A stretch of DNA of 64,000 nucleotides, from positions 70,533 through 134,532 of the forward strand of contig JAJQDE010000061.1 of NCBI GenBank assembly GCA_021202335.1, in the 5' to 3' direction. Origin of the DNA: Lachnospiraceae bacterium (GTDB lineage: Bacteria; Bacillota; Clostridia; Lachnospirales; Lachnospiraceae). How positions within the stretch are numbered: the stretch's first letter is position 1; every line of letters starts with the position of its first letter. A program made the position numbers and the translations under genes. Positions 3,366 through 46,174 of the stretch are shown here, one piece after another. The notes beneath the pieces are model-generated. The model saw only the letters and a list, made by a program, of their open reading frames with translations. It was not told the origin of the DNA and did no database searches.

Positions 3366-4364
3366 ATGGATAAAAAGGAAAAATGGCTTAAATATGAGAA
3401 GCGCTGGAAATGGCGCGATATATATTTCAATAAAGCGCTGCGGCGGCACGGGATTGTAAAGTATTTCCACAGGGAGCCTGTAATGCCGCATTACGCGCAC
3501 AAGCGGGTTATGAGCCCTAAAAAAACAAACGATTACATCTATGACAGGATTATGGGGGGGAAGCCCTTTATGGCGTGCCGCTTTGGAAACACTGAGCTGC
3601 AGACCATGGTGGGAGATTTGGCGGTCAGGTACAAGGGACATTCGCCCGCAGACGACGAATATCTTGACAGATGGTTTACAAGGCTCGGCGCCGGAGCAGG
3701 CTTTTTTCCCGTGGATTACAAATATCTTCATCCGTTTACGGATTTGATGCTCGATTCCTGCAGGCAGGTGGATCTGCTTGCCATGTGGCATTTAAATATG
3801 GAGGATTTTATCATTGAGGAATTTGTTCCCCGGGCGGATTTGACCTTTCTTTTCAGGCTCGAGCCGTGGCTTTACGGCGGCCGTCCGTGGACCGCGGCAC
3901 TGGAAGGCAAAAAAGTGCTTATCATTCACCCGTTTGAGGACAGCATCAGGGCGCAGTACCCAAAGCGCAGGGAAATATGGGGAGAAAAGCCTATATTGCC
4001 CGATTTTGAGCTAAAGACGCTTAAAGCCGTGCAGACAATCTGCGGTGAGAAGGACGAACGCTTTGCGACGTGGTTTGACGCGCTGGAATATATGTACAAT
4101 GAGGCGATGAAGATAGATTTTGACGTTGCAATCATCGGCTGCGGCGCGTATGGCTTTCCGCTCGCGGCAAAGCTTAAATGCGCGGGGAAGCAGGCGATAC
4201 ATTTGGGCGGCGCGACACAGCTCATGTTTGGCATCAAGGGCTACCGCTGGGAGAACAACTATCCGTCAAAAATTGCGACCTTCTTTAATGACGCATGGAT
4301 TTACCCTAGTGCGTCGGAAACGCCGAAAAACGCGAAAACAGTGGAAAAGGGATGCTATTGGTGA
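3366..4364 (+). CDS. Conserved glycan-locus protein, GT-D/DUF1792-like fold
   Basis: RFGNTE (cf. RFGDGE), KKVLIIHPF, IIGCGAYGFPLAA, AIHLGG. Abuts the upstream stop. Confidence 0.55.
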   Translation: MDKKEKWLKYEKRWKWRDIYFNKALRRHGIVKYFHREPVMPHYAHKRVMSPKKTNDYIYDRIMGGKPFMACRFGNTELQTMVGDLAVRYKGHSPADDEYLDRWFTRLGAGAGFFPVDYKYLHPFTDLMLDSCRQVDLLAMWHLNMEDFIIEEFVPRADLTFLFRLEPWLYGGRPWTAALEGKKVLIIHPFEDSIRAQYPKRREIWGEKPILPDFELKTLKAVQTICGEKDERFATWFDALEYMYNEAMKIDFDVAIIGCGAYGFPLAAKLKCAGKQAIHLGGATQLMFGIKGYRWENNYPSKIATFFNDAWIYPSASETPKNAKTVEKGCYW

Positions 4365-5221
4365 TGAAAACGCTTGCTTATAGGATTTACAGAAAAATCA
4401 TTTATTTTTTTCGCAGAATATATGTATCGGCTGCGCCGATGCGCGGCGCGCTTACCCATGAGAAGCGTCCCGTGCGCGTTATAGTATCGCTTACGAGCTA
4501 TCCGGAACGGTTTTCGCATATCCACATTGCGCTCAAAAGCATTATGCTCCAGACCATGAAGCCCGACAAAATAATTGTATGGCTTGATGATGATGTGGAT
4601 AGGGCGCAGCTTACTCCGAGGATGCTTGCGCTTGAAAAGTACGGTATTGAATACAGAAGCATGCCAGGGGATTTCAAGCCGCACAAAAAATATTTTCATG
4701 CCATGCAGGAATTTCCCGACGATATTATAGTGACGGTGGACGACGACCAGATATATTCAAGGGATATGATAGAAACGCTGATTAAAACGCATGAGAGATA
4801 TCCCGATGCGGTGTGCGCAAGGCGTGTACACAAAATGACGAAAAATCCGGACGGCACGATAGCGCCCTACAATGAATGGCTGGGGGAATACTGCGGCTGC
4901 GATAAGCCCTCGCATGCGCTTGTGGCGACGGGAGTAGGCGGAGTGCTTTATCCGCCCCATTGCCTTTATGAGAAAGCGTTTGACACGGAGCTTATCACAC
5001 GCCTTTGCCTGAAGGCGGACGACATATGGCTTAAATTCATGGAGCTGCTTAATGGAACCCGCGTGGTATGGGCGCCTTGCAGAGTGCCAATGCCCTGCCT
5101 GTTGGAAAAGGAACAAGGGACAAGCCTGAGAAGCGAAAATGTGGGGCGCAACAGGAATGATGCGTACTTTTCAATGGTGCGGGATTATTTTAACGTGCAG
5201 GCGGACGCCTTTGAAATTTAG
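4364..5221 (+). CDS. GT-A glycosyltransferase
   Basis: VSLTSYPERF, PHKKY, VTVDDDQIY, GVGGVLYPP, ADDIW. TGATG coupling to the previous gene. Confidence 0.75.
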   Translation: MKTLAYRIYRKIIYFFRRIYVSAAPMRGALTHEKRPVRVIVSLTSYPERFSHIHIALKSIMLQTMKPDKIIVWLDDDVDRAQLTPRMLALEKYGIEYRSMPGDFKPHKKYFHAMQEFPDDIIVTVDDDQIYSRDMIETLIKTHERYPDAVCARRVHKMTKNPDGTIAPYNEWLGEYCGCDKPSHALVATGVGGVLYPPHCLYEKAFDTELITRLCLKADDIWLKFMELLNGTRVVWAPCRVPMPCLLEKEQGTSLRSENVGRNRNDAYFSMVRDYFNVQADAFEI

Positions 5222-5259
5222 GTGTGACAATGCTGTAATGAAAGGAGTATAACGATAAA

Positions 5260-6036
5260 ATGCAGGAAATGTTAGTGTCCGTGATTACCCCGTGCTATAA
5301 CAGCGGCAGTACCATAGAAAAAAACCTGGAGTGTATCGAAAACCAGACCTACAAAAATTTGGAATATATTATCATCGACGGCGGCTCCACGGACGGCACA
5401 CTCGAAATCATAGAGCGGCACAGGAGCAGACTCCCGGAGAATTTAAAGCTTGTGTCGGAGAAGGACAAAGGCATTTATGACGCCATGAACAAGGGAGTGC
5501 GGCTTGCGGGAGGGAAGCTTATCGGCATCGTAAACAGCGACGACTGGTATGAGGACGATACGGTCGGGCTGGCGGTTTCAAATTATCAGGGAAATAAGTA
5601 CGAGGTTGTCTATGGTATGCAGCGCAATATATTAAACGGCAGGGCGAAAACTACCTTTATACATTACCATGATTTTCTGACAGAGCAGATGATAACGCAT
5701 CCCACCTGCTTTGTGACTGCGGACACATACAGGGATTTGGGGCTTTTTGATACTAAGTACCGTTCGGCGGCGGATTACGATCTGATGCTGCGCTTTTACG
5801 AGAGCGGTAAGGTAGTGTTTACGCCTGTGATGAGGGTGATGTCAAATTTCAGGCTTGGCGGGATGTCAGGCAGCCAGACGGGAGTGCGGGAAAATGCCGC
5901 AATCCGATACCGGCATGGCTGCATGAGCAGGAGAAGATACCGGTTCGTGGTGGCAAAAAGCCGGCTCTACGAATGGACGCATAAAAAACGCCATGGTGTG
6001 CCGGCTTGCTCCATTAGTCACTCCCTGCGGTCATGA
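5260..6036 (+). CDS. GT2 family glycosyltransferase (WcaE-like)
   Basis: VSVITPCYN, IIDGGSTDGT, GIYDAMNKG, VNSDD, ADYDL, GGMS. Confidence 0.9.
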   Translation: MQEMLVSVITPCYNSGSTIEKNLECIENQTYKNLEYIIIDGGSTDGTLEIIERHRSRLPENLKLVSEKDKGIYDAMNKGVRLAGGKLIGIVNSDDWYEDDTVGLAVSNYQGNKYEVVYGMQRNILNGRAKTTFIHYHDFLTEQMITHPTCFVTADTYRDLGLFDTKYRSAADYDLMLRFYESGKVVFTPVMRVMSNFRLGGMSGSQTGVRENAAIRYRHGCMSRRRYRFVVAKSRLYEWTHKKRHGVPACSISHSLRS

Positions 6037-6053
6037 CATGGAGGCGAAATATG
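6014..6053. repeat. Dispersed ~40 bp element containing SD and start codon (copy 1)
   Basis: ttagtcactccctgcggtcatgacatggaggcgaaatatg is near-identical to 16007-16045. Confidence 0.65.
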
Positions 6054-7178
6054 AAGCTTGCCTATATATCCTTAAACACGGAAAACAAAAATTTGAGTAA
6101 ATATTACAACTCACAGGCGGAGGGGCTTGCGCGTGATCTCGCAAAAGGAGGGCATGAGGTAACGGTTTATCATCCCATACCTGACCTTGAGGCTGACAAG
6201 GAGTGCGTATGGAAGGGCGCCGTAAAAATCGAATATATTAAGTGCGGGCACATAGGAAAGCATGCCATAATAGACCTTTCCATGCTTGATGCGGATAAGG
6301 ACTGCTATATCACGGCATCGGACAATTATCTTTTTTTTGGCAGGCTTTACAGATGGTGTCGGAGGAACAATATCCTCTGTCTGCCATATATCGGAGTGGC
6401 TCACAGCAATAATTCTTCAAAGATAAAGAGAAAAATTGTTGACATTTTATGTAATAATGTTAAATATTATAAGAGAATACCTACTGTCGTAAAAACTCCC
6501 GCTTTGGAACAAAGCCTTAGGGCTGAGGGAGCTTCAACGCTGTTCTGTGTGCCGGTAGGCTTGGACGAGGAGCTTTTAAAGCAGGATTATCATAAGTATG
6601 ACGCTGAAGTCTTAAAGAAAAAATGGGATTATGGAAATACTGACAGGGTAATCCTTTTTGTGGGACGCATGACAGCCGAGAAGCAGCCCTTAAAAATGAT
6701 GGAAATTTTTCAAAAAATGCTTGAGCACGACGGCAATTACAGGCTTTTGATGGTAGGCAGCGGCGAGCTTTTGGAGAATGTAAGGAGTAAAACAGCCGCA
6801 TATGGGCTTGAACATGCGGTAAGGATTTGCGAGAGAGTGCAAAACGACCGCATGTGGGAGCTTTACCGCATGTCGGAATGCTATATTAATTTAAACACGC
6901 ATGAGATATTCGGCATGGCGATTTTGGAGGCAATGTACTATGAATGTACGGTAATTGCGCTTAGGGCGCCCGGTCCTGAGCTTATCATAGAAAACGGTAT
7001 ATCAGGATATCTGTGCGACAGCGGTGACGAGCTGATACAAAGGGTGCTGACTGCGGACATGGCAGAGCCGGCAAAGACGGCGCATAGGCAGGTCGTGCAG
7101 CGCTTTTTGTGGGAAAGCCGGGCAAAGAGGCTTGAGAATATTATCTGCGATGTTTTGGGCGCGGCTCAATCGCGGTAA
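6051..7178 (+). CDS. GT4 (GT-B) glycosyltransferase
   Basis: ILFVGRM..EKQ, EIFGMAILEAM (E-x7-E), IIENGISGYL. Start set at ATG 6051 behind GGAGG. Confidence 0.88.
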   Translation: MKLAYISLNTENKNLSKYYNSQAEGLARDLAKGGHEVTVYHPIPDLEADKECVWKGAVKIEYIKCGHIGKHAIIDLSMLDADKDCYITASDNYLFFGRLYRWCRRNNILCLPYIGVAHSNNSSKIKRKIVDILCNNVKYYKRIPTVVKTPALEQSLRAEGASTLFCVPVGLDEELLKQDYHKYDAEVLKKKWDYGNTDRVILFVGRMTAEKQPLKMMEIFQKMLEHDGNYRLLMVGSGELLENVRSKTAAYGLEHAVRICERVQNDRMWELYRMSECYINLNTHEIFGMAILEAMYYECTVIALRAPGPELIIENGISGYLCDSGDELIQRVLTADMAEPAKTAHRQVVQRFLWESRAKRLENIICDVLGAAQSR

Positions 7179-7189
7179 AGGAGTCGGAT

Positions 7190-7903
7190 TTGAATAAAAA
7201 CACATTAAGGGTTTACCGCCATGAGGTGAAATTCCTGCTTTCGATGACGGAATATGAGCAGCTAAAGCGGCTTTTAGGCTCGCTTCTTATAAAAGACGTG
7301 AATATGAAGCGAAGCGGAGATTATTATATACGCTCGCTGTATTTTGACACTCCCGAAAACAGCGATTACCATGATAAGCTGATAGGAGCTGCGCAAAGGA
7401 AAAAGATAAGGCTCAGGATATATGACACGGCAGCCGACCGGGTAAAGCTGGAAATCAAAAACAAGAATGGGGACTATTCCATAAAGGAAACCACGACGAT
7501 AAGCCGTGAAGCCGCAATCCTGCTTTCGGGCGGAAATTACGGTGCGCTTGACGGATATGGCGACGATATATCAGGGAAAGCGTATGTTATGCTGTCCTCC
7601 TATGCATATATGCCGAAGGTGCTCGTGGATTATGAAAGGGAGGCATATCTTCTTCCGGTTGAAAATGTCAGGCTTACCTTTGATAAGAGAGTGCGCGCAT
7701 GTTCCGCACGCGGATGCCGGGCGGGAGCCGGGCTTTTCGACGGCAGCAGCGCGTTTGTGGGAGTGCTTGAGCCGGGATATATGATTCTTGAGGTAAAGTA
7801 CGACAGGTATCTCCCGGCATATGTGAAAAACGTGCTTTCAAGCATAAATATGCAGCGGATGTCAATCAGCAAATACTGTATGGCGCGGGAAACCGTGGGA
7901 TAA
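7190..7903 (+). CDS. VTC (polyphosphate polymerase, CYTH-like) domain protein
   Basis: RHEVKF, YYIRSLYFDT, RKKIRLRIY, KLEIK, DYEREAY, RLTFD, ILEVKYD, SISKYC. TTG start with AAGGAG SD. Confidence 0.88.
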   Translation: MNKNTLRVYRHEVKFLLSMTEYEQLKRLLGSLLIKDVNMKRSGDYYIRSLYFDTPENSDYHDKLIGAAQRKKIRLRIYDTAADRVKLEIKNKNGDYSIKETTTISREAAILLSGGNYGALDGYGDDISGKAYVMLSSYAYMPKVLVDYEREAYLLPVENVRLTFDKRVRACSARGCRAGAGLFDGSSAFVGVLEPGYMILEVKYDRYLPAYVKNVLSSINMQRMSISKYCMARETVG

Positions 7904-7957
7904 AAAACAAGCTTTGTCGGTTCTGCAAATTTGAGTAATAATGGAGGATTATGGCGG

Positions 7958-8626
7958 ATGAGCAAGAAGGAAATTTTTAAGTATCTGATTGAGTCAAATT
8001 CAAGCATCTCAGTATATCAGGTGGTGTTTGCGATGCTGGCGGCGCTTGTGCTGGGGCTGTTTATGTATTTTATGTATCGGAAAACCTATTCAGGGGTCGC
8101 ATATTCCAAGAGCTTTAACCAGACATTGGTGCTTTTGGCAGTGATTGTTACGATGGTCATGACAATTATAGGGGGAAGCCTTGCGCTTTCGCTCGGCATG
8201 GTAGGCTCTTTGTCCGTAATCCGTTTCCGCACCGCCATAAAGGAGCCTAAGGACATGGCATTCCTTTTTTGGGCGATTGCGATAGGGCTTTCCTGCGGCG
8301 CTGAAATGTATGTGGTGGCTGTAGTCGGAAGCGCTGTCATAGCAATACTGCTCCTGTTTTTCAGGAAGGACGCGTATGATGGAAACACATATCTTATTGC
8401 GGTGCGGGGAAATGCGCTTGACAGCGGCGCGATAGAAAAGCTTATCGGTGAAAACACAAGAAGCTGGAAGCTTCGCATGCGCAGCTCCACAGGGGAGTAT
8501 GACGAAATCACCTATGAGGCGGGATTGAAGAAAAGTAATGCTTCGGAGCTTGCAAGGGCATTGAGGGAAATTGATGGGACAGACGCGGTGAATGTGGTGA
8601 CATATACGGGAGAAGTCATAGGCTGA
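7958..8626 (+). CDS. DUF4956 family membrane protein
   Basis: About four TM helices with LALSLGMVGSLSVIRFRTAIKEPKDMAFLFW, plus a soluble ACT-like C-terminus. ATG 7958 behind GGAGG. Confidence 0.88.
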   Translation: MSKKEIFKYLIESNSSISVYQVVFAMLAALVLGLFMYFMYRKTYSGVAYSKSFNQTLVLLAVIVTMVMTIIGGSLALSLGMVGSLSVIRFRTAIKEPKDMAFLFWAIAIGLSCGAEMYVVAVVGSAVIAILLLFFRKDAYDGNTYLIAVRGNALDSGAIEKLIGENTRSWKLRMRSSTGEYDEITYEAGLKKSNASELARALREIDGTDAVNVVTYTGEVIG

Positions 8627-10782
8627 TGAGAAAAAACATTTTATCAGGGGTTTGGAGAATTTTAATCATTGCGGTACCGCTTGCCGTGACAGCGGCGATG
8701 ATATATGTAAGGGCATCGCAGCTTCAGGCGTATGGCGAGAAGGGAACGCACCTTTTGATAAACGAGGTTGTGGCGGACAACCTTTCCACATTGAAGGACG
8801 GGAATGGCGTGTATTCGGATTGGATTGAGCTGTACAATCCGACGGACCATGCGATAAGCCTAAAGGGCTATTATCTGTCGGACAGCAAAAATGAGCTTAC
8901 AAAATGGGCGTTTCCCGACGTAAGCATTGACAGCGGCGGGTATTTGATTGTTTTTTGCGACGCGGGGGAAGGCCTTCTGCATGCGAATTTTTCCATAAAC
9001 TCAGATAAGGAAACCATTTACTTAAGTGATGAGAATGAAAATGTGACAGACAGCATTAAGCTTGAAAATCAGCAGTGCGACATTTCATATGGAAGGACAT
9101 TCGGAAATTATGATGAAACGGGATTTTTGCCGTACTGCACGCCGGGAGCGGCCAATCCGTCGTATTTTGGCAGTAGCGACCCGGCATATGCTGACTGGGG
9201 AGAGGTCTGCTTTTCCCTTGACGGCGGTCTGTATGATGAAAGCATACAGGTGGAGCTTTACTGTGATATAGAGGGCGCGGCGATAATCTACACACTTGAC
9301 GGGAGCGAGCCGGACATCGGCAATGCGTATATTTACGACAGGCCGATAGAGATTACCGACGAGGGCAGACCAAATCAATACACGACAAAAAAATGTCTGG
9401 TGCGGCCAAGCAGCAACGCGGATAATGCGGACACTGTATACGGCGTAAACGAAGTGTACAAGGGAACCGTAATTAGGGCAAGGATATTAAAGGATGCGAA
9501 GCTTTCCTCCTCCATACAGACCAACACGTATTTTATCAATTCGGATTATTCAATGCCTGTTGTGTCGCTTTCCACCGATCCGGACGGGCTGTTTGACGAT
9601 GTGGAGGGTGCGTATGTGCTGGGATATACCTACTACACGATGCGAAAGTACGGGGTGAATACAACACGCGCAAACAGCGGTATGCAAAAGGATTTGGCAG
9701 GGCACATAGAGATTTACGGTACGGACGGCAGCGTGTTTGAGGATGATGTGACGTTTTCAATTGCGGGCGGCTCAAGTGTCAGGACGAATCTGCAAAAGAG
9801 CTTTAACGTGATTTTGGAAAACGAAAGCATATCGGGAGATATGTTCGGGGCTTTGGCGGCAGTGGAATACGGACGTTTTACCCTGCGCGGACCGGGAAGC
9901 GGCGTGGTGCAGAGAAATAAATATGTCTATCCGAGCGCGTTTGTTTCCAACTATATCAGCGGCGAGGACACGGGCGGTCAGAGCAGCCGGTATTGCCTCC
10001 TGTTTATTGACGGGGAATATTGGGGCATATACAGCCTTATGGAGCCAAAAGGCAAGGAATACATGAGTGTGCTTACGGGCGCATCGAAAAAGGATATTAC
10101 AATCGCCGCACCATATGACGACATTTATGACGATGAATTTGACGCGCTTTTTGACGGGATAAAAAACCATGATTTTAGCAAAGCGGAAAGCTACGAGTGG
10201 ATAAAGACAGAGATTGACATGGATAACTATATGGCGTGCGTGCTCGCGGAGGCATTTTTCGGAAATACGGATGGAATCAGCAACGGCGACCATAATCTGT
10301 ATATATGGAAGGAAGCCGGCGGATTGTGGAAATGGCAGATATTTGACTTTGACGCTACAATGGTGGATAATGAGAACTATATCAGAGAGATGATAGAGTT
10401 TGATTATTTGGACAGCGAGCATGAGGAAAAGAAAAGCTTCACATCGTGGCTTTTCGGGAAGCTTTGGGAATCTGAGGAGTTTAGGGAGGATTTTACGGCA
10501 TATGTGAGGCGGCAATGCGAAGGGCTTTACAGCAGGGAGAATGTGACGGCGGCGTTTGAGGAGCATATTTCTCAGCTGCAGCCGGAAATTCAGGAAAATC
10601 TTCTTCGGTGTGAAATGGATTACACTGCTCTTAAAAAGCTGAGCTTTTGGATAAGGGGCATAGACGCCGAATATGAAAATTACACGATGGAGGACTGGGA
10701 GATTACAGTCAGCGACATGCGCAGATTTTTGGAGAACAGAACAAAGCGCGTGCTGGAGTTTTTGGATGAATTGGGGGTTTGA
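8626..10782 (+). CDS. CotH kinase family protein with lamin-tail and chitobiase/FN3-like domains
   Basis: TM anchor, then LTD (LINEV..DN..D.DWIELYN, NFSI), Ig-like (IIYTLDGSEP) and CotH core (QKSF, LFIDGEYWGIYSLME, HNLYIWK, WQIFDFD). TGATG coupling to DUF4956. Confidence 0.85.
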   Translation: MRKNILSGVWRILIIAVPLAVTAAMIYVRASQLQAYGEKGTHLLINEVVADNLSTLKDGNGVYSDWIELYNPTDHAISLKGYYLSDSKNELTKWAFPDVSIDSGGYLIVFCDAGEGLLHANFSINSDKETIYLSDENENVTDSIKLENQQCDISYGRTFGNYDETGFLPYCTPGAANPSYFGSSDPAYADWGEVCFSLDGGLYDESIQVELYCDIEGAAIIYTLDGSEPDIGNAYIYDRPIEITDEGRPNQYTTKKCLVRPSSNADNADTVYGVNEVYKGTVIRARILKDAKLSSSIQTNTYFINSDYSMPVVSLSTDPDGLFDDVEGAYVLGYTYYTMRKYGVNTTRANSGMQKDLAGHIEIYGTDGSVFEDDVTFSIAGGSSVRTNLQKSFNVILENESISGDMFGALAAVEYGRFTLRGPGSGVVQRNKYVYPSAFVSNYISGEDTGGQSSRYCLLFIDGEYWGIYSLMEPKGKEYMSVLTGASKKDITIAAPYDDIYDDEFDALFDGIKNHDFSKAESYEWIKTEIDMDNYMACVLAEAFFGNTDGISNGDHNLYIWKEAGGLWKWQIFDFDATMVDNENYIREMIEFDYLDSEHEEKKSFTSWLFGKLWESEEFREDFTAYVRRQCEGLYSRENVTAAFEEHISQLQPEIQENLLRCEMDYTALKKLSFWIRGIDAEYENYTMEDWEITVSDMRRFLENRTKRVLEFLDELGV

Positions 10783-10804
10783 GCGAGAAAGGGGTATTGT
10801 TAAT

Positions 10805-11929
10805 ATGACAATTAAGTGCAATGTTTTGGACCGACAATTTCAGATGCACCAAAGCGAATATGAGGAGGCAGCCTTAAGGGTGCTCCGTTCGGGCTGGTAT
10901 GTGCTTGGAAACGAGGTCGCAGCGTTTGAGGAGGAATTTGCCGCATACACGGGGAGAAAATACTGCGTCGGGTTAAATTCCGGGCTTGACGCGCTTATTA
11001 TGTCCGTGCGCGCGCTGGGCATAGGCGAGGGCGATGAGGTCATCGTGCAGTCAAACACCTATATCGCGACAGTGCTTGGGATTACGGAAAATAAGGCGAC
11101 GCCCGTTTTCGTGGAGCCGGACGAATACTTTAACATGGATGCGGAAAAAATCGAACAGGCAATTACGCCAAAGACAAGGGCGATCATGGTTACGCATTTA
11201 TATGGGCAGGCAAGCAATATGGAACCGATTGCCCGGATTGCGAAAAAGCATCATTTAGAGCTGCTTGAGGACTGCGCGCAGTCGCACGGCGCGTGCTTTG
11301 AAGGCAAAATGACGGGAAGCTTTGGCATTTCCGGCTGCTTTAGCTTTTATCCGACCAAAAATCTCGGCGCCTTTGGCGACGCGGGCGCGGTGGTGACGGA
11401 TGATGAAGGGCTTGCGGATGAGCTTAGGATGATGAGAAATTACGGCAGCCGCGTCAGATATTATAATGAAATAGAAGGACTTAACTCAAGACTCGACGAG
11501 CTGCAGGCGGCATTTCTGAGGATAAAGCTGAAATATGTTGACAATCTTAATAGTGAGAGAAGGGCTCTTGCTTTGGCATACGATACCGGCATCAAAAATG
11601 ATAAAATTGCCCTGCCGAAGGTTCGCCCCGGCGCGGACAATATTTGGCATCAGTATGTGGTACGCTGTGGGGAGCGTGACAGATTGCGGCAGTATTTACA
11701 GGAGAACGATATCCAAACGCAGATTCATTATCCTATACCGCCGCATCTTGCCGAATGTTATCGGCATTTAGGGTATAAAAAGGGCGATTTTCCTATAGCG
11801 GAGCGCTATGCGGATGAGGTCTTAAGCCTTCCCATCTACACGGGCATGACAGGGGCGGAGCAGGACTATGTTATTGAAAAATTAAATAGTTTCAGCTTAA
11901 TGAATTCTGAAAGGGAGAATTGTGTATGA
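10805..11929 (+). CDS. fdtB: DegT/DnrJ/EryC1 PLP aminotransferase, dTDP-3-amino-3,6-dideoxyhexose transaminase type
   Basis: LEDCAQSHGA, SFYPTKNLGAFGDAG, GLNSRLDELQAA, LSLPIY. Next to a cupin 3,4-ketoisomerase. fdtB versus qdtB cannot be resolved from sequence. Confidence 0.85.
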   Translation: MTIKCNVLDRQFQMHQSEYEEAALRVLRSGWYVLGNEVAAFEEEFAAYTGRKYCVGLNSGLDALIMSVRALGIGEGDEVIVQSNTYIATVLGITENKATPVFVEPDEYFNMDAEKIEQAITPKTRAIMVTHLYGQASNMEPIARIAKKHHLELLEDCAQSHGACFEGKMTGSFGISGCFSFYPTKNLGAFGDAGAVVTDDEGLADELRMMRNYGSRVRYYNEIEGLNSRLDELQAAFLRIKLKYVDNLNSERRALALAYDTGIKNDKIALPKVRPGADNIWHQYVVRCGERDRLRQYLQENDIQTQIHYPIPPHLAECYRHLGYKKGDFPIAERYADEVLSLPIYTGMTGAEQDYVIEKLNSFSLMNSERENCV

Positions 11930-12354
11930 ATATAGAGGATTGCAGGCTGCTGGAGTTTCCGCAGAGGGGCGATGAGCGGGGGCATCTTGTTGCAATAGAG
12001 GGCTGCGGGGATATTCCCTTTGAAATCAAGCGCGTATTTTATATTTATGGTTCCGACAGGAACGTTGTGCGCGGGCGGCACGCGAATAACAATTCGGAGT
12101 TCGTGCTGATAAACGTGTCCGGTACGTCAAAGGTAAAGGTCGACGACGGCAGAAAAACTAAAATATTTGATTTGGACAGACCGCATATCGGCATCTATCT
12201 GCCGCGGCTCGTTTGGAAGGATATGTATGATTTTTCAGAGGATTCCGTGCTGCTTTGCCTGTCAAGCGAGCATTACGACGCCGGGGAGTATATCAGAGAT
12301 TACGACAGCTACCTGGAGATTATGAAAAAGCATTGGGAGGAAGAAAATGCTTAG
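11926..12354 (+). CDS. fdtA: dTDP-4-keto-6-deoxyhexose 3,4-ketoisomerase (FdtA/QdtA cupin)
   Basis: DERGHLVAIE, IPFEIKRVFYIY, RGRHA, LLCLSSEHYD..EYIRDY. ATGA overlap. Confidence 0.88.
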   Translation: MNIEDCRLLEFPQRGDERGHLVAIEGCGDIPFEIKRVFYIYGSDRNVVRGRHANNNSEFVLINVSGTSKVKVDDGRKTKIFDLDRPHIGIYLPRLVWKDMYDFSEDSVLLCLSSEHYDAGEYIRDYDSYLEIMKKHWEEENA

Positions 12355-12835
12355 ACGGCTTGAGGAAAAGGATGCGCCGCTGATGCTGGAGTGGATGTAC
12401 GACAGCGAAATCAATTGCAATTTTAGAGCGGATTTTGCCTCTGCCACATTGGAGAGCGCAAAAGAATTTATACGCGGCAGTTTTACTGATAAAGACATGA
12501 ACTTTGCTTTTGTTGATGAAAACGACGAGTACATGGGGACAATAAGCTTAAAGAATATTTCATATGAGGATAGCAGCGCCGAGTATGCGGTAGTCGCAAG
12601 GAAAAAGGCGCAGGGCACGGGAGCTGCGATGAGGGCGACAAAGGAGCTTCTTAATTATGCCTTTGAGAAACTTAAGCTCCACAAGGTATACCTAAACGTG
12701 CTCGAGGAAAATGTGAGGGCGCAGAGGCTGTATGAAAAGTGTGGCTTTGTCTGCGAAGGAAGCGCTGTCGACGCGGTGAAAATAAAGGGAGTGTATAGGA
12801 CGCTTAAGTGGTACGGCATAATAAATGAAAGATGA
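12347..12835 (+). CDS. GNAT N-acyltransferase (PseH/RimL-like), probable sugar N-acyltransferase
   Basis: GNAT motifs AQGTGAA, VYLNVLEENVRAQRLYEKCGF. Overlaps fdtA. Confidence 0.75.
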   Translation: MLRRLEEKDAPLMLEWMYDSEINCNFRADFASATLESAKEFIRGSFTDKDMNFAFVDENDEYMGTISLKNISYEDSSAEYAVVARKKAQGTGAAMRATKELLNYAFEKLKLHKVYLNVLEENVRAQRLYEKCGFVCEGSAVDAVKIKGVYRTLKWYGIINER

Positions 12836-12939: not shown

Positions 12940-13022
12940 AGATATGCGGGCAAAATTCGGTGGAGGAGGCCTGGTTATTCGGCTCGTGCGCAATCGGGAT
13001 TTTTCGGATTCCTTTGTGCTGA
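12906..13022 (+). pseudogene. Truncated minimal nucleotidyltransferase (MNT, HI0073-type antitoxin) remnant
   Basis: Manual translation MTAEEVTDRIAEICGQNSVEEAWLFGSCAIGIFRIPLC* holds the MNT LFGSxAxG motif and stops after 38 codons. Confidence 0.7.
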
Positions 13023-13336
13023 GTGGGACAAGTGCAAAATTTTGCATAACGTTTGAATTGGCATGGAAGGTCATGAAGGATATATTGGTGCAGTATTATG
13101 CGATTACGGGGTTTGTGACGGGTTCCCCCAAGGAGGTATTAAAACAGTCTTTTAAGACATATCTGATAACGGACGGCAGATGGCTTGATATGCTGAGGGT
13201 CAGAAATGAACTGTCGCATGATTATGATGATGCGGTTATCAGAGCTCATTGCGGGAATATTATTGGTATATATTCGGATTTATTTACAGACTTGGAAGAA
13301 AGAGTTGATAAATTATTGAGCAATCCCGCCGGGTGA
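12944..13336 (+). CDS. HEPN/HI0074-family nucleotidyltransferase substrate-binding protein, N-terminally deleted/chimeric
   Basis: FCITFELAWKVMKDIL, GSPKEVLK, WLDMLRVRNELSHDYD (R-x4-H). The first ~20 codons are an alternative frame of the MNT remnant. Confidence 0.75.
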   Translation: MRAKFGGGGLVIRLVRNRDFSDSFVLSGTSAKFCITFELAWKVMKDILVQYYAITGFVTGSPKEVLKQSFKTYLITDGRWLDMLRVRNELSHDYDDAVIRAHCGNIIGIYSDLFTDLEERVDKLLSNPAG

Positions 13337-13381
13337 ATTGACCCGATTTTGAATATGTAAAACAAGGGGGCTGGAACAGGG

Positions 13382-15070
13382 ATGAAACCGGCTGCATTAG
13401 GTATAACGAAATTTGAGGATATCGTAAACGAAAATGTATTTTATGTTGACAAGACATATTTTATACGGGAGTGGCTTGCCGGCAGTGACCGCGTAACGCT
13501 TGTCACAAGACCGAGACGTTTCGGAAAGACACTGACATTAAATATGGTGGAAACCTTTTTTTCCAAAGCATATGAGGGCAGAAGCGACCTGTTCGAACGC
13601 TTTGATGTATGGAAGGACGAGAAGCTGCGCACTATGCAGGGGCAATATCCCGTGATAAACCTGAGCTTTGCTGATGTGAAGCAGGACAGCTACGAGAGCA
13701 TGACGGCAAAGATGAAACGGATTATTTCGACGTTGTATAAGCGGCATAGGTATCTGCTCGATTCGGACAAACTAAGTAAGGATGACAAGGCTGTATTTAC
13801 GGCGTATCTTGAGAGAAAAGCGACGGATGAGGAATGTATGGAATCACTCTTAAGGCTGTCGGAATATATGCATATTCATTTTGAAAAGCCGGTCATAATT
13901 TTGATGGACGAATACGACACGCCAATGCTCGAGGCATACACGGCAGGCTATTGGGATAAGGCAATCGTCTACATCCGCAGGATGTTTCACGCCACCTACA
14001 AGGATAATCCAAACCTTTTCAGAGGTCTAATGACGGGAATTACAAGAATAACGCAGGAATCCGTATTTTCTGATTTGAATAACGTTGCGGTAGTGACGAC
14101 TACTACCGAGCTTTTTGAAACGAGCTTTGGGTTTACTGAGGATGAAGTCCATGATGCGTTAAGAGAGTATGGGTTGTATGAGAAAAAGGATGAAGTCAGA
14201 CGGTGGTATGACGGCTTTAGGTTTGGCAGGAGGTCTGATATATACAATCCGTGGTCTATAATAAATTTCCTGAAATTTGGGAAATTTGAGCCATATTGGA
14301 TGAACACAAGTGGGAATGGACTGGTAGGAAAGCTTTTGCGCGAAGGTTCGGTTGATGTTAAGAATGATTTTGAAAATCTCCTTAACGGAGGGACAATCTG
14401 CTCCGAGATAGATGAGGCGATAACCTATGCGGAGCTTTCGGGGGCTTCAAAATCCATATGGAGTTGGCTTGTTACGACGGGCTATATCAAAATAGTGTCT
14501 GAGCAGACACCGTGCTATGAGCTTGCGCTCACAAATTATGAGGTGCGGCTTGCTTTTGCAAAGCTTGTAAAAAAGTGGTTTGATGGGAGCTATGACAATT
14601 ATAAGGGGCTTATGCGCAAGCTTTTGGAGGGTGATTTGGAAAGCCTGCAGTATTATATGGAAAAGGTGACGCGGCAGACCTTCAGTTTTTTCGACGTTGG
14701 AAACGAATCGACGGAAACGGAGAGGACAGAGCAGTTTTATCACGGTTTTACGCTTGGACTGATAGCTGATTTAAACAATACGCATGTCGTTACCTCAAAC
14801 CGTGAGAGCGGTTTCGGAAGATACGATGTGTGCATAGAGCCGAATGACGTGTCTAAGGACGGTATTATTATAGAATTTAAGATATTTGACCCCAAAAAGG
14901 AAAAGACGCTTGAGGAAACGGCGCGCCGTGCGTTAAAGCAGATAGAGGACAGAAAATATGAAACGGCGCTTAAAGCTAAAGGGATAAAGACTGTGCGCAG
15001 ATACGGTTTTGCTTTTAAGGGTAAGGAAGTGCTTATAATGGAGGCTGATGAAGAAAAACGTCAGATATAA
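13382..15070 (+). CDS. AAA-ATPase-like / PD-(D/E)XK nuclease (PDDEXK_9) protein
   Basis: YVDKT, Walker A RPRRFGKT, Walker B ILMDEYD, YNPWS, YWMNTSGN, EQFYHGF, SNRESGFGRYD, IIIEFK, ALKQI. Confidence 0.9.
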   Translation: MKPAALGITKFEDIVNENVFYVDKTYFIREWLAGSDRVTLVTRPRRFGKTLTLNMVETFFSKAYEGRSDLFERFDVWKDEKLRTMQGQYPVINLSFADVKQDSYESMTAKMKRIISTLYKRHRYLLDSDKLSKDDKAVFTAYLERKATDEECMESLLRLSEYMHIHFEKPVIILMDEYDTPMLEAYTAGYWDKAIVYIRRMFHATYKDNPNLFRGLMTGITRITQESVFSDLNNVAVVTTTTELFETSFGFTEDEVHDALREYGLYEKKDEVRRWYDGFRFGRRSDIYNPWSIINFLKFGKFEPYWMNTSGNGLVGKLLREGSVDVKNDFENLLNGGTICSEIDEAITYAELSGASKSIWSWLVTTGYIKIVSEQTPCYELALTNYEVRLAFAKLVKKWFDGSYDNYKGLMRKLLEGDLESLQYYMEKVTRQTFSFFDVGNESTETERTEQFYHGFTLGLIADLNNTHVVTSNRESGFGRYDVCIEPNDVSKDGIIIEFKIFDPKKEKTLEETARRALKQIEDRKYETALKAKGIKTVRRYGFAFKGKEVLIMEADEEKRQI

Positions 15071-17861: not shown

Positions 17862-19047
17862 ATGCTAAAGAAACACTTTACATTATTGGTAAGCATATGT
17901 ACAATTTTAAGCATCGGATTTGCATTTATCAATATTGTATATAATGAAACATATATGCTGTTGGTATATGATTTAAAAACCGGATTTACTGATAATGTTT
18001 CATATGCAGTAAGTGCTGCAGTGCTGATAGTTCTGACAGCGATACTTGGGGGGGGGTATATGGAGAATCCTGTTTGGCAGAATACATGTCATTGTGATGG
18101 TTACAATAAGGGGCAGGCTGTTTGTTGCCGCGACGGATGAAGATGATGGAGCCGATATAAATGCTGACAGACGGATAGACCTTGCATTTGTTTTAAATGT
18201 AATATGCAGTGCAGTCATTATTGCCTGCATGACGAATTTCATCGCTTTTTTTACGGAAACAAATATAACGGAAGGTACATGGGGATATCCGAAAACTGTC
18301 GGTCATTCGTTTGGGGCGGCGGATGGATATGACTATACGGGTTCATTGGAAGCTTTCCTATATAACTATAAATTGGGAAGAAGAACGATGGAAGTAGATT
18401 TAATCCTTACAACGGATGACAGGCTTGTGCTCAAACATGATTGGGATACGCCGGAACAGTTCGGGATATCCGAGGATAATCCGCCGGACGAGGAAACCTT
18501 TTTAAACACGAAAATCTTGGGAAAATATACGCCGTTAAGCTTTTCGGGGCTTTGTGAACTTATGGTGGAGTACCCGGATATATGGATTATCACTGATACA
18601 AAAAGCGTGGAAAGTGAAGAAATCAAGAAACAGTTTGCGGTTATGCTTGATACGGTGCACCGGTTAGGGTGCGAAGAAATTTTGGACAGGCTTATTATTC
18701 AGGTATATCATGAGGAGATGTATCAAATTGTAAATGATATATATCGGTTTGATAATTACATTTTTACCATGTATTGGCGGTTTGACAGCGATGATTGGCT
18801 GGAAACTACCAAAGAAGTATGCCGATTTTGCGTAAATAATGGAATAGAAACGATTACGATTGGGACGAATAGGATTTCGCCCGAAATGGAAGCTGTTGCA
18901 GAACGCTATGGAAGAAAAGTATATATCCATACGGTGAACGATCTGCAAAAAGCAGAGCAATATTTCCAAATGGGGGTAACGGGGATATATACCGATATAA
19001 TAACAGATGAGGATTTGCGGCAAAGTAAAACGGGAGATATTAAATGA
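17862..19047 (+). pseudogene. Membrane-anchored glycerophosphodiester phosphodiesterase (GDPD)-like gene split by a frameshift at a G9 tract
   Basis: ORF 17862-18140 (TM helices) and ORF 18046-19047 (GHSFG, EVDLILT.D..LVLKHD, IITDTK, YIHTVN, GIYTD) join at G9 (18048-18056). G8 would give one 394-aa ORF. Confidence 0.75.
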
Positions 19048-20279
19048 AAGAAATTAACCGGGAAAATAGAAGATTTTTAATAGTATTAATAGGAATCATG
19101 CTTATATGGGCGCTAAGCCTTTATCCGTTCAAGTTTGGCGGCTGGAATCAGATCATGCTGGCTTTTTCGTACAGATTTGGATTTATACAGAGGGCGTTTA
19201 TCGGGAGCGTGATTGATGTTGTTTCAACGGTATTTAGGATACCATTGAAATATATGAGATATCTGTATGGAATCAGTACGGTGGGAATATTTACGTTAGG
19301 CGCGCTGCTTATTGTATATAAGGCGTTGATACATGCTGAAGGCGACAATACCGTAAAGTGCTTTTATAAGGGTATGGCGCTGGTGTTTTTTATGGGACCG
19401 GGGTGGTGCACGAATTACAATAATTTTGCACTCACGGATATGTGGCTTCCGATGATTTCATTAATCGGGGTATGGTTTATTCTTAAAGGGAAGCATGTTT
19501 GGATTTCTCTGGCAGCGACTGTTATCTGCGTACTGATTCATCCGGCATATGTTTTTTTATATTTCAATTTGATTTTGGCAGCATTTATATATAAGGAATT
19601 TTTGGCAAATGACAGAACGGATAAAAAAAGCCTTATTTGGCTGGCAATTGTTTTTGCTTTTGGTTCAGTGTTATTTATATATATGATGTTTTTCTCGCAT
19701 GCGCGTGAGGGCGTCACTGCTGATGAAATAATGCAGAGAGCGGCAATTGTTGTCGATAAAAGTGTTGAGGAGATAAGCAACCATGAACCGACTGTAAGAG
19801 GGTATCTGCTGAGGGACGGCGGCGAAAGTGGTGTACAGCTTGTAATAAACAGCTATTGGCTTTTGCTGGCGGTATCGGTTATAATGTTTATGCCCTTTAT
19901 TTTTGAAATCTTTAAATATTGGAAATACGTTTATAAAGAAGCTAAGAGCAATGGAATAAAGAACCACATACTTTACGCCTTGTTGCCGATGGGCGTAGTT
20001 ACGGCTGCGCCAATGTATATTATGCATAATGATTATGGAAGATGGACTTATGCGGTATTTTTCTATGAGTTTGCAATTATTTGGATTTTTAATTTATTGA
20101 AAGATGCGAACGTAAAAAAAGCAACGTATGATTTGATGGAAAGAGTATTTTCGCATAAGGCTTATTATCTGCTGCTGCTTTTTTATGCCGCTGTGTCAGG
20201 ACCATTTCAGCAGAATTTAATTAATCCGATGATTTCAAAGCTGGAAACGCTTGGATGGAAGCTTTTGGGAGTGTATTGA
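19044..20279 (+). CDS. Polytopic membrane protein, probable GT-C/polymerase-like
   Basis: About 10 hydrophobic segments, motifs SYRFGFIQRAFIG, IHPAY, NDYGRW. ATGA overlap. Confidence 0.55.
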   Translation: MKEINRENRRFLIVLIGIMLIWALSLYPFKFGGWNQIMLAFSYRFGFIQRAFIGSVIDVVSTVFRIPLKYMRYLYGISTVGIFTLGALLIVYKALIHAEGDNTVKCFYKGMALVFFMGPGWCTNYNNFALTDMWLPMISLIGVWFILKGKHVWISLAATVICVLIHPAYVFLYFNLILAAFIYKEFLANDRTDKKSLIWLAIVFAFGSVLFIYMMFFSHAREGVTADEIMQRAAIVVDKSVEEISNHEPTVRGYLLRDGGESGVQLVINSYWLLLAVSVIMFMPFIFEIFKYWKYVYKEAKSNGIKNHILYALLPMGVVTAAPMYIMHNDYGRWTYAVFFYEFAIIWIFNLLKDANVKKATYDLMERVFSHKAYYLLLLFYAAVSGPFQQNLINPMISKLETLGWKLLGVY

Positions 20280-24828: not shown

Positions 24829-26292
24829 TTGGGAGAGATTAGGGCAAATATACAAAAAGAAAAGAAAAATATCTTCGCAGCGGCAAAGAATCTGTTATGC
24901 TCGCAGAAAGCGCCGGGATTGATTGAATACGGGATTCTTTTTTTGTTCTTTATGCTTACGTTTACGACAATGATGTACGGAGATACAAAAGCGTTCGTGC
25001 ATTACGGCGTAAATTTTTGGAAGAGCATTACGGAAGGCGGCGGACTTCGCAATTTTTATGAGTATTCCAACGATATGCTGGCGTATTACAGAGCTAACGG
25101 AATTGGCGGAGCATATGAAGTGATTTATGATTTCCCGGTTTATATCGTGCTTGGCATATGGAATTTTCCATTGTGGATTGTATGCAGCGCTTTTGGGATT
25201 GAAGAAACATCGAGCATGTGGACAATGCTTTATTCAAAATCAGAATATATTGCGGCGCTTATCATCGTGGCATATCTTATACGTAAAATCTGCAGGAATA
25301 TCGGCGTGGAGGATGTTATGTCGAAGTGGGCGGCGTTTCTGTTTTTGTCCTCAACGCTTGTGTTTGTGGAGATAGGAATTGCAGGGCAGTTAGACGTGCT
25401 GGGAATGCCCTTTACGTTATTGGCAGTATATTATTTTCGGAAAAAATGCAGATGGAAATTTTTACTGTTTTTTTCCATATCCGTTACCTTTAAGCAGTTT
25501 CCGCTGTTTATATTTCTTCCTTTGGTGATGCTGATAGAGAAAAACGTTTTAAAAATAGCTGTCGATACCCTTATTGTCTTTGCGGTCACTATCATTTCAG
25601 GACTGCCTTTTCCTAAGGGTACGGAGGCCATGCAGGTAAAGGAAGAAATCAGAAGTCAATTTATGGCATCTTTTTTGGGGGTAAAGGCTCCGCTGTATAA
25701 CAGTGCAGTTCCGGTCATAGTGCTTCTGATAGGCGGGCTATGCGTATTCTGTTACTTGAAAAATATAAGGGATGATAGGGAACTGGAGCAATATTCCGTA
25801 TTTATCCCTGCACTGTCAATGTTCGTATTGTTTATATCATTTGACAGCAATCCGTATTGGTTTATACATCTTGCGCCTTTTATGGCAATATTGATTGCAT
25901 ATAATTCAAGCCGCTTTAATCAGTTGATTTTATTTGAAACGGTTGGGATGCTGTGTCTGATATTGAACCAGTTTGGGGCAAATTATTGGGTATATGAGAG
26001 TTATTGGGCGCGGGGGATGCTTTTGGATAAGATATTCGGATATCCTGAAAATCTTATAACCTTGGAACGCTTTGGCGCATCTGCGGGGCTGGATGAATTT
26101 TACGGAGTGTTTTTTGCCGGATTTGTTATTTGCATCGTAGCCTGCCTGCTCATAAGCCTGCCGGGAAAAATGAAGCAGGGTGAGGATGTTGCCGTAAGAC
26201 CGTATGCGATGCTCAGAATGCTTTTAAACGCAGGAATTTCATGGATACCCGGATTTTTGTTTGTGATTTCTCATTACATCACTCTTAACTGA
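24829..26292 (+). CDS. GT-C superfamily (GT87/DUF2029-like) membrane glycosyltransferase
   Basis: Polytopic, with GQLDV, SVTFKQFPLF and NPYW motifs. Confidence 0.6.
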   Translation: MGEIRANIQKEKKNIFAAAKNLLCSQKAPGLIEYGILFLFFMLTFTTMMYGDTKAFVHYGVNFWKSITEGGGLRNFYEYSNDMLAYYRANGIGGAYEVIYDFPVYIVLGIWNFPLWIVCSAFGIEETSSMWTMLYSKSEYIAALIIVAYLIRKICRNIGVEDVMSKWAAFLFLSSTLVFVEIGIAGQLDVLGMPFTLLAVYYFRKKCRWKFLLFFSISVTFKQFPLFIFLPLVMLIEKNVLKIAVDTLIVFAVTIISGLPFPKGTEAMQVKEEIRSQFMASFLGVKAPLYNSAVPVIVLLIGGLCVFCYLKNIRDDRELEQYSVFIPALSMFVLFISFDSNPYWFIHLAPFMAILIAYNSSRFNQLILFETVGMLCLILNQFGANYWVYESYWARGMLLDKIFGYPENLITLERFGASAGLDEFYGVFFAGFVICIVACLLISLPGKMKQGEDVAVRPYAMLRMLLNAGISWIPGFLFVISHYITLN

Positions 26293-45989: not shown

Positions 45990-46174
45990 GGGAAACCCGT
46001 CTGATTGATTGCCGAAAGGAAGCTGCCTGTATTTTTCAAAAATTTTACATATATTCCACAGGAGTATGGTAGCTGCCTTTACAAACGCACGTTAATATTT
46101 CTTTATAACCCAAACGCCTGTCATGCAGGGAGCTTGGTATGTTATCAACATCAAGAGAAGAGGAGATTAAAGAG

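Follow-up and report, generated by a model that had tools for sequence, protein, structure and literature searches.

What would a relative of the yeast polyphosphate (polyP) polymerase do beside a kinase-like protein that faces the outside of a bacterial cell, where ATP is scarce? The question is raised by 64,000 nucleotides of a Lachnospiraceae bacterium (GenBank assembly GCA_021202335.1, contig JAJQDE010000061.1, positions 70,533 to 134,532 of the forward strand), a stretch that we call the window. There, between positions 7190 and 10782, a first reading of the letters had placed three adjacent genes, coding for a VTC-domain protein, a DUF4956 membrane protein and a CotH-family protein, and had proposed that the first two make and export polyP as a phosphoryl donor for the third. 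All the elements of this original prediction are found where it put them. The trio is a real, widespread and functionally uncharacterised membrane-spanning module. That it works as a trans-membrane phosphoryl supply line via polyP is a plausible reading, to which sequences and structure models lead us to give a probability of about 0.35.

A trio that recurs across genomes

Scanning one genome per species with an alignment of the VTC protein retrieved relatives in at least 588 genomes. The best 80 loci were kept with flanks of 10 kb, and partner genes were called in them with hidden Markov models (HMMs) built in this analysis. These loci come mostly from Bacillota (Lachnospiraceae/Butyrivibrio, Oscillospiraceae, Faecalibacterium/Gemmiger and Tissierellales), while a few are labelled Spirochaetales, Campylobacterota, Coriobacteriaceae, Chloroflexota or archaeal metagenome-assembled genome (MAG). 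A DUF4956 gene adjoins the VTC gene in 78 of the 80, the remaining two being truncated where a contig stops. CotH-family genes occur in 71 of the loci, and two more truncated contigs carry an adjacent open reading frame (ORF) with an LTD domain. Uninterrupted triads number 61 and follow seven different orders: CotH-VTC-DUF4956 (23 loci), VTC-DUF4956-CotH (19), DUF4956-CotH-VTC (8), an arrangement with a divergent CotH gene (7) and three rarer ones. Starting from divergent DUF4956 proteins as anchors leads to the same picture, since all three anchors used also lie in triads. The VTC protein itself carries a transmembrane (TM) segment in a single locus of the 80.

Conserved synteny does not account for this linkage, because the flanks are heterogeneous: as many as 80 Pfam families are represented among the 139 genes that flank the trios most closely. 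Could the three genes be neighbours by chance, with no functional meaning attached to their adjacency? There is virtually no room for this explanation, which is refuted by the frequencies just given, by the permuted gene order, by the unrelated flanks and by the presence of the trio in several phyla. The pairwise distances of the three proteins are also correlated (r ~0.9 over 55 loci in a Mantel-type comparison), which is consistent with a trio inherited as a unit, a correlation that weighs little because the phylogeny shared by the species can by itself produce a value of this order.

The commonest neighbours of the trio are glycan genes. Among the 139 nearest flanking genes are 15 coding for GT2 glycosyltransferases, 11 for CE4 deacetylases, three for GT1 glycosyltransferases, three for Wzx-like proteins and two for DegT proteins, and a glycan gene is present within the flank in at least 27 of the 80 loci. 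The two closest relatives of the window trio, with VTC proteins 74% and 69% identical to that of the window, have the same embedding between a GT1 gene and a DegT gene. As another case in point, ten loci from Tissierellales, Alkaliphilus and other Clostridia (L008, L013, L016, L019, L022, L024, L030, L036, L052 and L060) display a cassette in which the trio is followed by a CE4 gene, with a GH16 gene nearby in nine of them. This cassette is usually preceded by a GT2 gene, the product of which has PgaC/IcaA as its best NCBIfam match, well below cut-off. Many other loci have housekeeping genes or unrelated ones as neighbours, coding for an AI-2E transporter, a diacylglycerol-kinase-like protein, DegV, MreB, a penicillin-binding protein or tRNA synthetases.

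Several individual loci deserve mention in their own right. In four loci from Oscillospiraceae MAGs (L047, L050, L081 and L082) the VTC-DUF4956 pair has no CotH gene within the fetched flanks. A Wzx-like flippase gene (Pfam Polysacc_synt) lies directly upstream in L047 and L081, and its homologues in L050 and L082 belong to the same sequence cluster. In L086 (6914-8637) the VTC-DUF4956 pair is intact, but the CotH gene beside it is fragmented into pieces of 127 and 113 amino acids (aa) with CotH matches, which is either a decaying gene or an assembly error. In L087 (6860-12870) the order CotH-VTC-DUF4956 is followed by phage-type genes coding for YopX, Bro-N, a large terminase and an SPP1-type portal, so that the module abuts a prophage. 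A hunt for natural (Rosetta-stone) fusions, using a concatenated VTC+DUF4956 query, returned apparent VTC+DUF4956 or DUF4956+CotH fusions among metagenome-predicted proteins, of which P0241, P0245, P0247, P0255, P0265, P0267, P0270 and P0282 were read. We rejected these as truncated chimeras or frameshift read-throughs, mostly located on short metagenome contigs, and chimeric or frameshifted ORFs are not counted here for physical coupling. The sole topologically sensible object among them is P0282, in which the TM region of DUF4956 is followed by a signal-like segment and a full CotH.

Architecture of the three proteins

The VTC protein matches the Pfam VTC family (PF09359, of the TTM/CYTH superfamily) over model positions 2-232 of 235 (E=8.5e-38, 130.7 bits against a cut-off of 23). 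Its 237 residues comprise the VTC domain alone: no SPX domain and no hydrophobic or TM-like segment were found in them, in line with the soluble protein that had been predicted. Single-sequence phmmer searches of the Protein Data Bank (PDB) returned nothing relevant for this protein, nor for the CotH protein, and profiles were therefore needed to reach known structures in both cases. A profile of 18 VTC homologues retrieved yeast Vtc4 (3g3q, E=2e-6), and one of 23 triad-linked CotH domains retrieved the CotH of Bacillus cereus (5jd9, E=5.8e-12). When the AlphaFold2 (AF2) model of the VTC protein (predicted local distance difference test, pLDDT, 88.4; predicted template-modelling score, pTM, 0.87) is compared with the PDB using Foldseek, the top 13 matches are all Vtc4, Vtc3 or Vtc2. 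The best of them is Vtc4 3g3r (E=1.6e-15, TMq 0.70-0.74), and the other triphosphate tunnel metalloenzymes (TTMs) come at 6e-10 or worse. As modelled, the fold is thus nearer to Vtc4 than to any other tunnel enzyme and forms a closed beta-tunnel.

The residues tell a similar story, with one twist. Invariant R10/K14, R74/R76, K90, K99, Y148/R150, R161 and E201 align in the profile with Vtc4 positions that we take to be R196/K200, R264/R266, K281, K294, Y359/R361, R373 and E426 (numbering of Hothorn 2009). All of the Vtc4 tunnel residues that fell within the alignment and were checked are invariant in the bacterial clade. HMMER left the C-terminus unaligned to Vtc4. An invariant K228 and a nearly invariant S227 (in the motif SISKYC) stand there at the expected position, and they are presumably equivalent to the catalytic Lys458, with Ser457, of the C-terminal plug helix of Vtc4. 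The twist lies at the N-terminus. Hydrolase-type TTMs carry an acidic patch, used as a second metal site, which basic residues replace in Vtc4 (PMC4641920). At the two positions of this patch that were mapped, R10 is basic as in Vtc4, and residue 12 is an invariant glutamate where Vtc4 has a threonine and the plant enzyme AtTTM3 has Glu-4. Judged by its sequence and its model, the protein is a TTM of the Vtc4 branch that keeps most of the Vtc4 catalytic and tunnel residues, and it is a candidate polyP polymerase. The window protein also has a six-residue insertion (within SARGCRAGAG, residues ~171-180) in a loop that is shorter in 17 homologues and in which the model, its termini set aside, is least confident.

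The second protein matches Pfam DUF4956 (PF16316) with E=1.1e-14 and 55 bits against a cut-off of 30.6, and so do 28 of 28 aligned relatives. Its AF2 model (pLDDT 76) begins with an N-terminal amphipathic helix. Where about four TM helices had been expected, the model has five (19-43, 51-71, 75-93, 97-114 and 118-137), followed at residues 144-215 by a C-terminal beta-alpha-beta-beta-alpha-beta domain of the ACT-like type. Charge counts are consistent with an N-out/C-in topology, which would place the invariant R89, R91, K95 and D99 of the TM3/TM4 loop (an R-x-R-x3-K cluster) on the cytoplasmic side. The model matched ACT domains of the PDB in Foldseek, weakly (E ~4e-3). The window protein also matches the Pfam family MgtC (PF02308) below cut-off, with 16.1 bits against a threshold of 31.4, and sub-threshold matches of this kind are found in 20 of the 28 family members (best E=4.4e-6). 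Because the Foldseek matches are limited to these weak ACT domains and MgtC similarity recurs in most of the family, we see DUF4956, as far as sequence and model allow, as a distant MgtC-like protein at most and not as a Vtc1-type subunit.

The third protein, 718 aa long, is made of an LTD domain (41-145), a CHB_HEX_C_1/Fn3_assoc domain (199-302) and a CotH domain (382-707, E=1.4e-24). Its single N-terminal hydrophobic segment (12-30) is preceded by R2, K3 and R11, and the protein is predicted to be anchored in the membrane and to face outward, which agrees with the anchored CotH with LTD and Ig domains of the original prediction. A similar N-terminal segment is found in 60 of the 63 full-length CotH partners of the surveyed loci. 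In the triad-linked CotH domains K391, N547, D549, N557 and D574 are invariant. D549 and D574, kept in all 23 of these domains, align with D224 and D247 of B. cereus CotH, which are separated by 23 residues just as are D228 and D251 of the Bacillus subtilis protein, the two aspartates whose mutation inactivates the kinase (PMC7821199). By predicted topology, then, the triad CotH partners are extracytoplasmic, with a catalytic loop that reads as intact.

The same glycan locus of the window codes for a second CotH protein, which has no VTC or DUF4956 of its own. Its score against the CotH family (PF08757, cut-off 23.8) is 108.4 bits, that of the trio protein being 87.7. It is N-terminally anchored, with a TM-like segment at 9-27, and it has GAD (D375) and WDMD (D404) motifs. 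The HMM of the triad CotH domains failed to detect it even at E<=10, and for this reason we place it in a different, divergent CotH subfamily.

A proposed phosphoryl supply line and its rivals

A Vtc4-like enzyme in the cytoplasm, its constant partner in the membrane and an outward enzyme with a kinase fold are, taken together, most simply read as a phosphoryl supply line. The VTC protein would dock on DUF4956 and make polyP from ATP. DUF4956, probably oligomeric, would then pass the polyP chain, or phosphoryl groups, to the outer face of the membrane. There CotH would use polyP, in place of the ATP that is scarce outside, to phosphorylate a surface polymer. The likeliest target in the window is the heteroglycan that the neighbouring glycosyltransferases build, or else a protein attached to this glycan, since a long series of closely spaced glycan genes on the same strand encloses the module. 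In its specific form, in which a VTC-type polymerase and an unrelated MgtC-like protein push phosphoanhydride energy across the membrane and the outward CotH uses polyP and not ATP, we rate the proposal as unlikely.

Several observations weigh against such a supply line. The original prediction saw in VTC and DUF4956 a possible split polymerase-translocase. The polymerase half of this view is supported insofar as VTC is close to Vtc4 by sequence and structure. The other half is not: we rejected homology of DUF4956 to the yeast VTC translocase, as it shares no detectable sequence or fold similarity with the channel subunits, and a Foldseek search of the PDB with its model gave no match to the TM chains of 7ytj or 8i6v, nor to any membrane protein. 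A split polymerase-translocase is therefore an analogy, not a homology. MgtC, its distant relative, is known as a regulator rather than as a channel, and we know of no enzyme with a protein-kinase fold that uses polyP. Some VTC-DUF4956 pairs exist without CotH, and the invariant E12 of the bacterial clade stands at an acidic-patch position of hydrolase-type tunnel enzymes (PMC4641920). The survey of gene neighbourhoods that the original prediction had called for bears out the association of the three genes, but it leaves most triads outside recognisable glycan loci, so that a glycan need not be the target. To be sure, the original prediction was right that the trio lacks functional characterisation as far as biochemistry is concerned, and our literature search found no biochemical study of bacterial VTC-domain proteins or of the trio. 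The trio had, however, already been described beside pel operons (PMC7112168), and deletions had been made in Streptococcus intermedius: single-gene deletions abolished neither Pel production nor aggregation and gave no clear phenotype in either respect (bioRxiv 10.1101/2024.04.20.589940).

Several other accounts of the trio have to be weighed against this one. PolyP might be the product itself, exported as a polyanion of the surface or matrix and paired, for example, with amino-sugar or de-N-acetylated cationic exopolysaccharides, while CotH would bind, anchor, cap or trim it. The company of the trio fits this idea: it lies beside CE4 deacetylases and PgaC/IcaA-like synthases (in ten loci with CE4, nine of them with GH16) and beside pel operons, the product of which is cationic (PMC7112168), and VTC-DUF4956 pairs devoid of CotH adjoin Wzx-like flippases. 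Yet the catalytic loop of CotH is intact in all 23 sampled partners, which argues for catalysis over binding, and the amino-sugar pathway of the window comprises an N-acetyltransferase and no deacetylase, so that no cationic glycan is predicted there. We find this account doubtful. It may also be that polyP never leaves the cytoplasm. As an MgtC-like protein, DUF4956 would then serve to anchor VTC to the membrane or to regulate it. Its ACT-like domain would respond to a metabolite, and it would tune the balance between ATP and phosphate during the synthesis of envelope polymers, while CotH would work independently outside with another donor. The recurrent MgtC-like matches of the DUF4956 family, which has the same layout of TM helices and ACT domain, speak for such a role, as does the influence that MgtC has in Salmonella on phosphate uptake and on ATP synthase. 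That polyP may stay in the cytoplasm was proposed in the S. intermedius study, on the ground that other parts of the VTC complex are missing (bioRxiv 10.1101/2024.04.20.589940). What a cytoplasmic fate fails to explain is the tight link, through seven gene orders, with an extracytoplasmic kinase-fold protein (71/80 loci) that is often translationally coupled to DUF4956, and we hold it to be rather improbable.

A more radical departure would deny that the VTC protein is a polymerase. As a tunnel hydrolase or cyclase, acting on tri- or polyphosphate or processing nucleotides, it would yield either a signal or a small donor molecule, for DUF4956 to sense or to hand over. With its invariant E12 the bacterial clade regains the E-x-K portion of the canonical CYTH motif, a portion missing from Vtc4, and AtTTM3 has a tunnel centre closely similar to that of Vtc4 while being a tripolyphosphatase (PMC4641920). 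However, at the other N-terminal position of the acidic patch the protein agrees with Vtc4 in having an arginine (R10), the Vtc4 tunnel residues checked are invariant, and the fold ranking favours Vtc4 over hydrolase or cyclase TTMs by about five orders of magnitude, so that we consider this quite unlikely.

If the phosphoryl supply line does operate, it has consequences beyond this locus. Bacterial polyP is attributed to PPK1 and PPK2. A Vtc4-type polymerase, if active, would add a third route to it, spread over at least 588 bacterial species. CotH proteins that face outward are frequent in both bacteria and fungi, and the trio offers a concrete, testable answer as to where they find phosphoryl groups outside the cell. 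A dedicated extracellular phosphoryl currency for surface glycans or proteins would then exist in hundreds of species from the gut, the rumen and the environment, and DUF4956, with the MgtC-like membrane fold, would receive its first molecular function. As the trio accompanies exopolysaccharide loci (pel, PgaC-like/CE4 and the heteroglycan of the window) and a disease-associated locus of Clostridium perfringens, its product may shape the biofilm matrix or the charge of the cell surface.

The locus of the window and its known counterparts

In the window the trio lies, as had been noted at the outset, between glycosyltransferase and sugar-nucleotide genes, and its last two genes are coupled by the predicted stop/start overlap. 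Table 1 gives the coordinates.

Table 1. The trio and its neighbours in the window
Feature	Position	Strand	Remarks
Second CotH-family gene, 530 aa	941-2533	+	Pfam CotH 6.7e-31
Upstream GT-D-like, GT2, GT2 and GT1 glycosyltransferase genes	3366-7178	+	
VTC-domain protein, 237 aa	7190-7903	+	TTG start; AAGGAG at 7178-7183, 6 nt upstream
DUF4956 membrane protein, 222 aa	7958-8626	+	ATG 7958; GGAGG 10 nt upstream
TGATG stop/start overlap	8624-8628	+	DUF4956 TGA 8624-8626, CotH ATG 8626-8628, one base in common; read from the sequence
LTD + Ig-like + CotH protein, 718 aa	8626-10782	+	Pfam domains; N-terminal hydrophobic segment
Downstream DegT aminotransferase, FdtA-type isomerase and GNAT acetyltransferase genes	10766-12835	+	

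The DUF4956 ORF was listed from a TTG at 7931 (7931-8626). The start given in Table 1 is likelier, and the 222-aa product also appears in independent gene calls on four metagenome contigs. Only 11 nt separate the end of the GT1 gene from the start of the VTC gene, and the start of the DegT gene overlaps the end of the CotH gene by 17 nt. The DegT, FdtA and GNAT enzymes are those of the dTDP-3-acetamido-3,6-dideoxyhexose pathway. From 110 to ~32051 extends a single same-strand glycan locus, which includes an ABC exporter, GT-D, two GDPD, three LtaS-like 'sulfatase' and two GtrII genes. The trio is thus embedded in a long run of closely spaced glycan genes on the same strand, probably one operon. 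A scan for promoters and terminators found intragenic consensus matches, none of them usable. NCBIfam has no model for any protein of the trio or for the second CotH. Families of the Pel type (pelDEA(DA)FG) are absent among the annotated genes of 110-32051, a locus whose 5' end lies beyond the window, 1.1 kb more of it being seen in L001.

Further features of the neighbourhood stand apart from the trio. Between the sugar-nucleotide genes and the GT-D and ABC-exporter genes, an NTase_sub_bind (HEPN-like) gene and an AAA-ATPase_like/PD-(D/E)XK gene (12944-15070, + strand) have the look of foreign DNA inserted into the glycan locus. The segment 18046-32051 (+ strand) contains the repeated sets of GDPD (2), LtaS-like 'sulfatase' (3) and GtrII (2) genes, together with two ORFs without Pfam match (19044-20279 and 24829-26292). 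Its guanine-plus-cytosine content is ~0.40-0.43, against ~0.48 in its flanks, which suggests a mosaic block of enzymes for extracytoplasmic glycerophosphate or glucosyl decoration. An alkaline phosphatase gene (46139-47740, + strand), ~35 kb downstream amid unrelated housekeeping genes, has no evident tie to the trio.

How does this module compare with systems already described? The yeast VTC complex Vtc4/Vtc3/Vtc1 (3G3Q, 3G3R, 7YTJ, 8I6V) provides the best structural and profile match to the catalytic tunnel domain of the window, and in both cases an enzyme of the polymerase type is linked with a membrane protein, a link known here from gene adjacency. Unlike its yeast counterparts, the window VTC protein has no SPX domain and no fused TM region, and its partner is a five-TM DUF4956 protein instead of a three-TM subunit of the Vtc1 type (DUF202). 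The bacterial clade has in addition its invariant E12, and any polyP that it makes would be destined for the cell surface, not for a vacuole. With the Ser kinase CotH of Bacillus (5JD9/5JDA) the window protein shares the Pfam CotH domain, the N-x-D...N catalytic loop and the WDxD aspartate. The spore enzyme works in the mother cell with ATP, on CotB and CotG, and its gene is linked to cotG and cotB, whereas that of the window has an N-terminal anchor, LTD and Ig-like domains and a predicted outward orientation, and its gene is linked to those of VTC and DUF4956. DUF4956 resembles the MgtC/SapB family (Salmonella virulence factor MgtC) in its multi-TM N-terminal part followed by a C-terminal ACT-like domain, but its core, S-L-G...R-F-R-T-x-x-K-x-x-x-D, is specific to the DUF4956 family, and to our knowledge MgtC is not linked to VTC or CotH.

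The closest precedents are gene neighbourhoods. The genes of the trio are already published as accessories that directly adjoin the pel operons of Gram-positive bacteria (PMC7112168), in a set made of cotH, a 'polyphosphate polymerase' gene, DUF4956 and DUF4832 and represented in S. intermedius by SIR_1591-1594 (PMC7112168; bioRxiv 10.1101/2024.04.20.589940). In the window the three families of the trio again stand side by side in an exopolysaccharide locus, but one that serves a heteropolymer and shows no genes of the pel type, coding instead for GT-D, GT2, GT1, dTDP-amino-sugar, ABC exporter, LtaS-like, GDPD and GtrII functions. In C. perfringens, the necrotic-enteritis-associated locus NELoc-2 is reported to comprise two genes with VTC or 'polyphosphate polymerase' domains, a CotH kinase gene, a glycosyltransferase gene and a polysaccharide deacetylase gene (PMC11677781). 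By description this content matches the GT2-trio-CE4 cassette of our ten loci, although NELoc-2 belongs to a plasmid or pathogenicity-locus setting and has its own sigma/anti-sigma pair. The S. intermedius preprint reported that the trio was not found outside pel operons (bioRxiv 10.1101/2024.04.20.589940). The loci surveyed here extend the published association with pel, since the trio also stands alone, forms part of PgaC-like/CE4 cassettes and, in the window, belongs to a heteroglycan locus other than pel.

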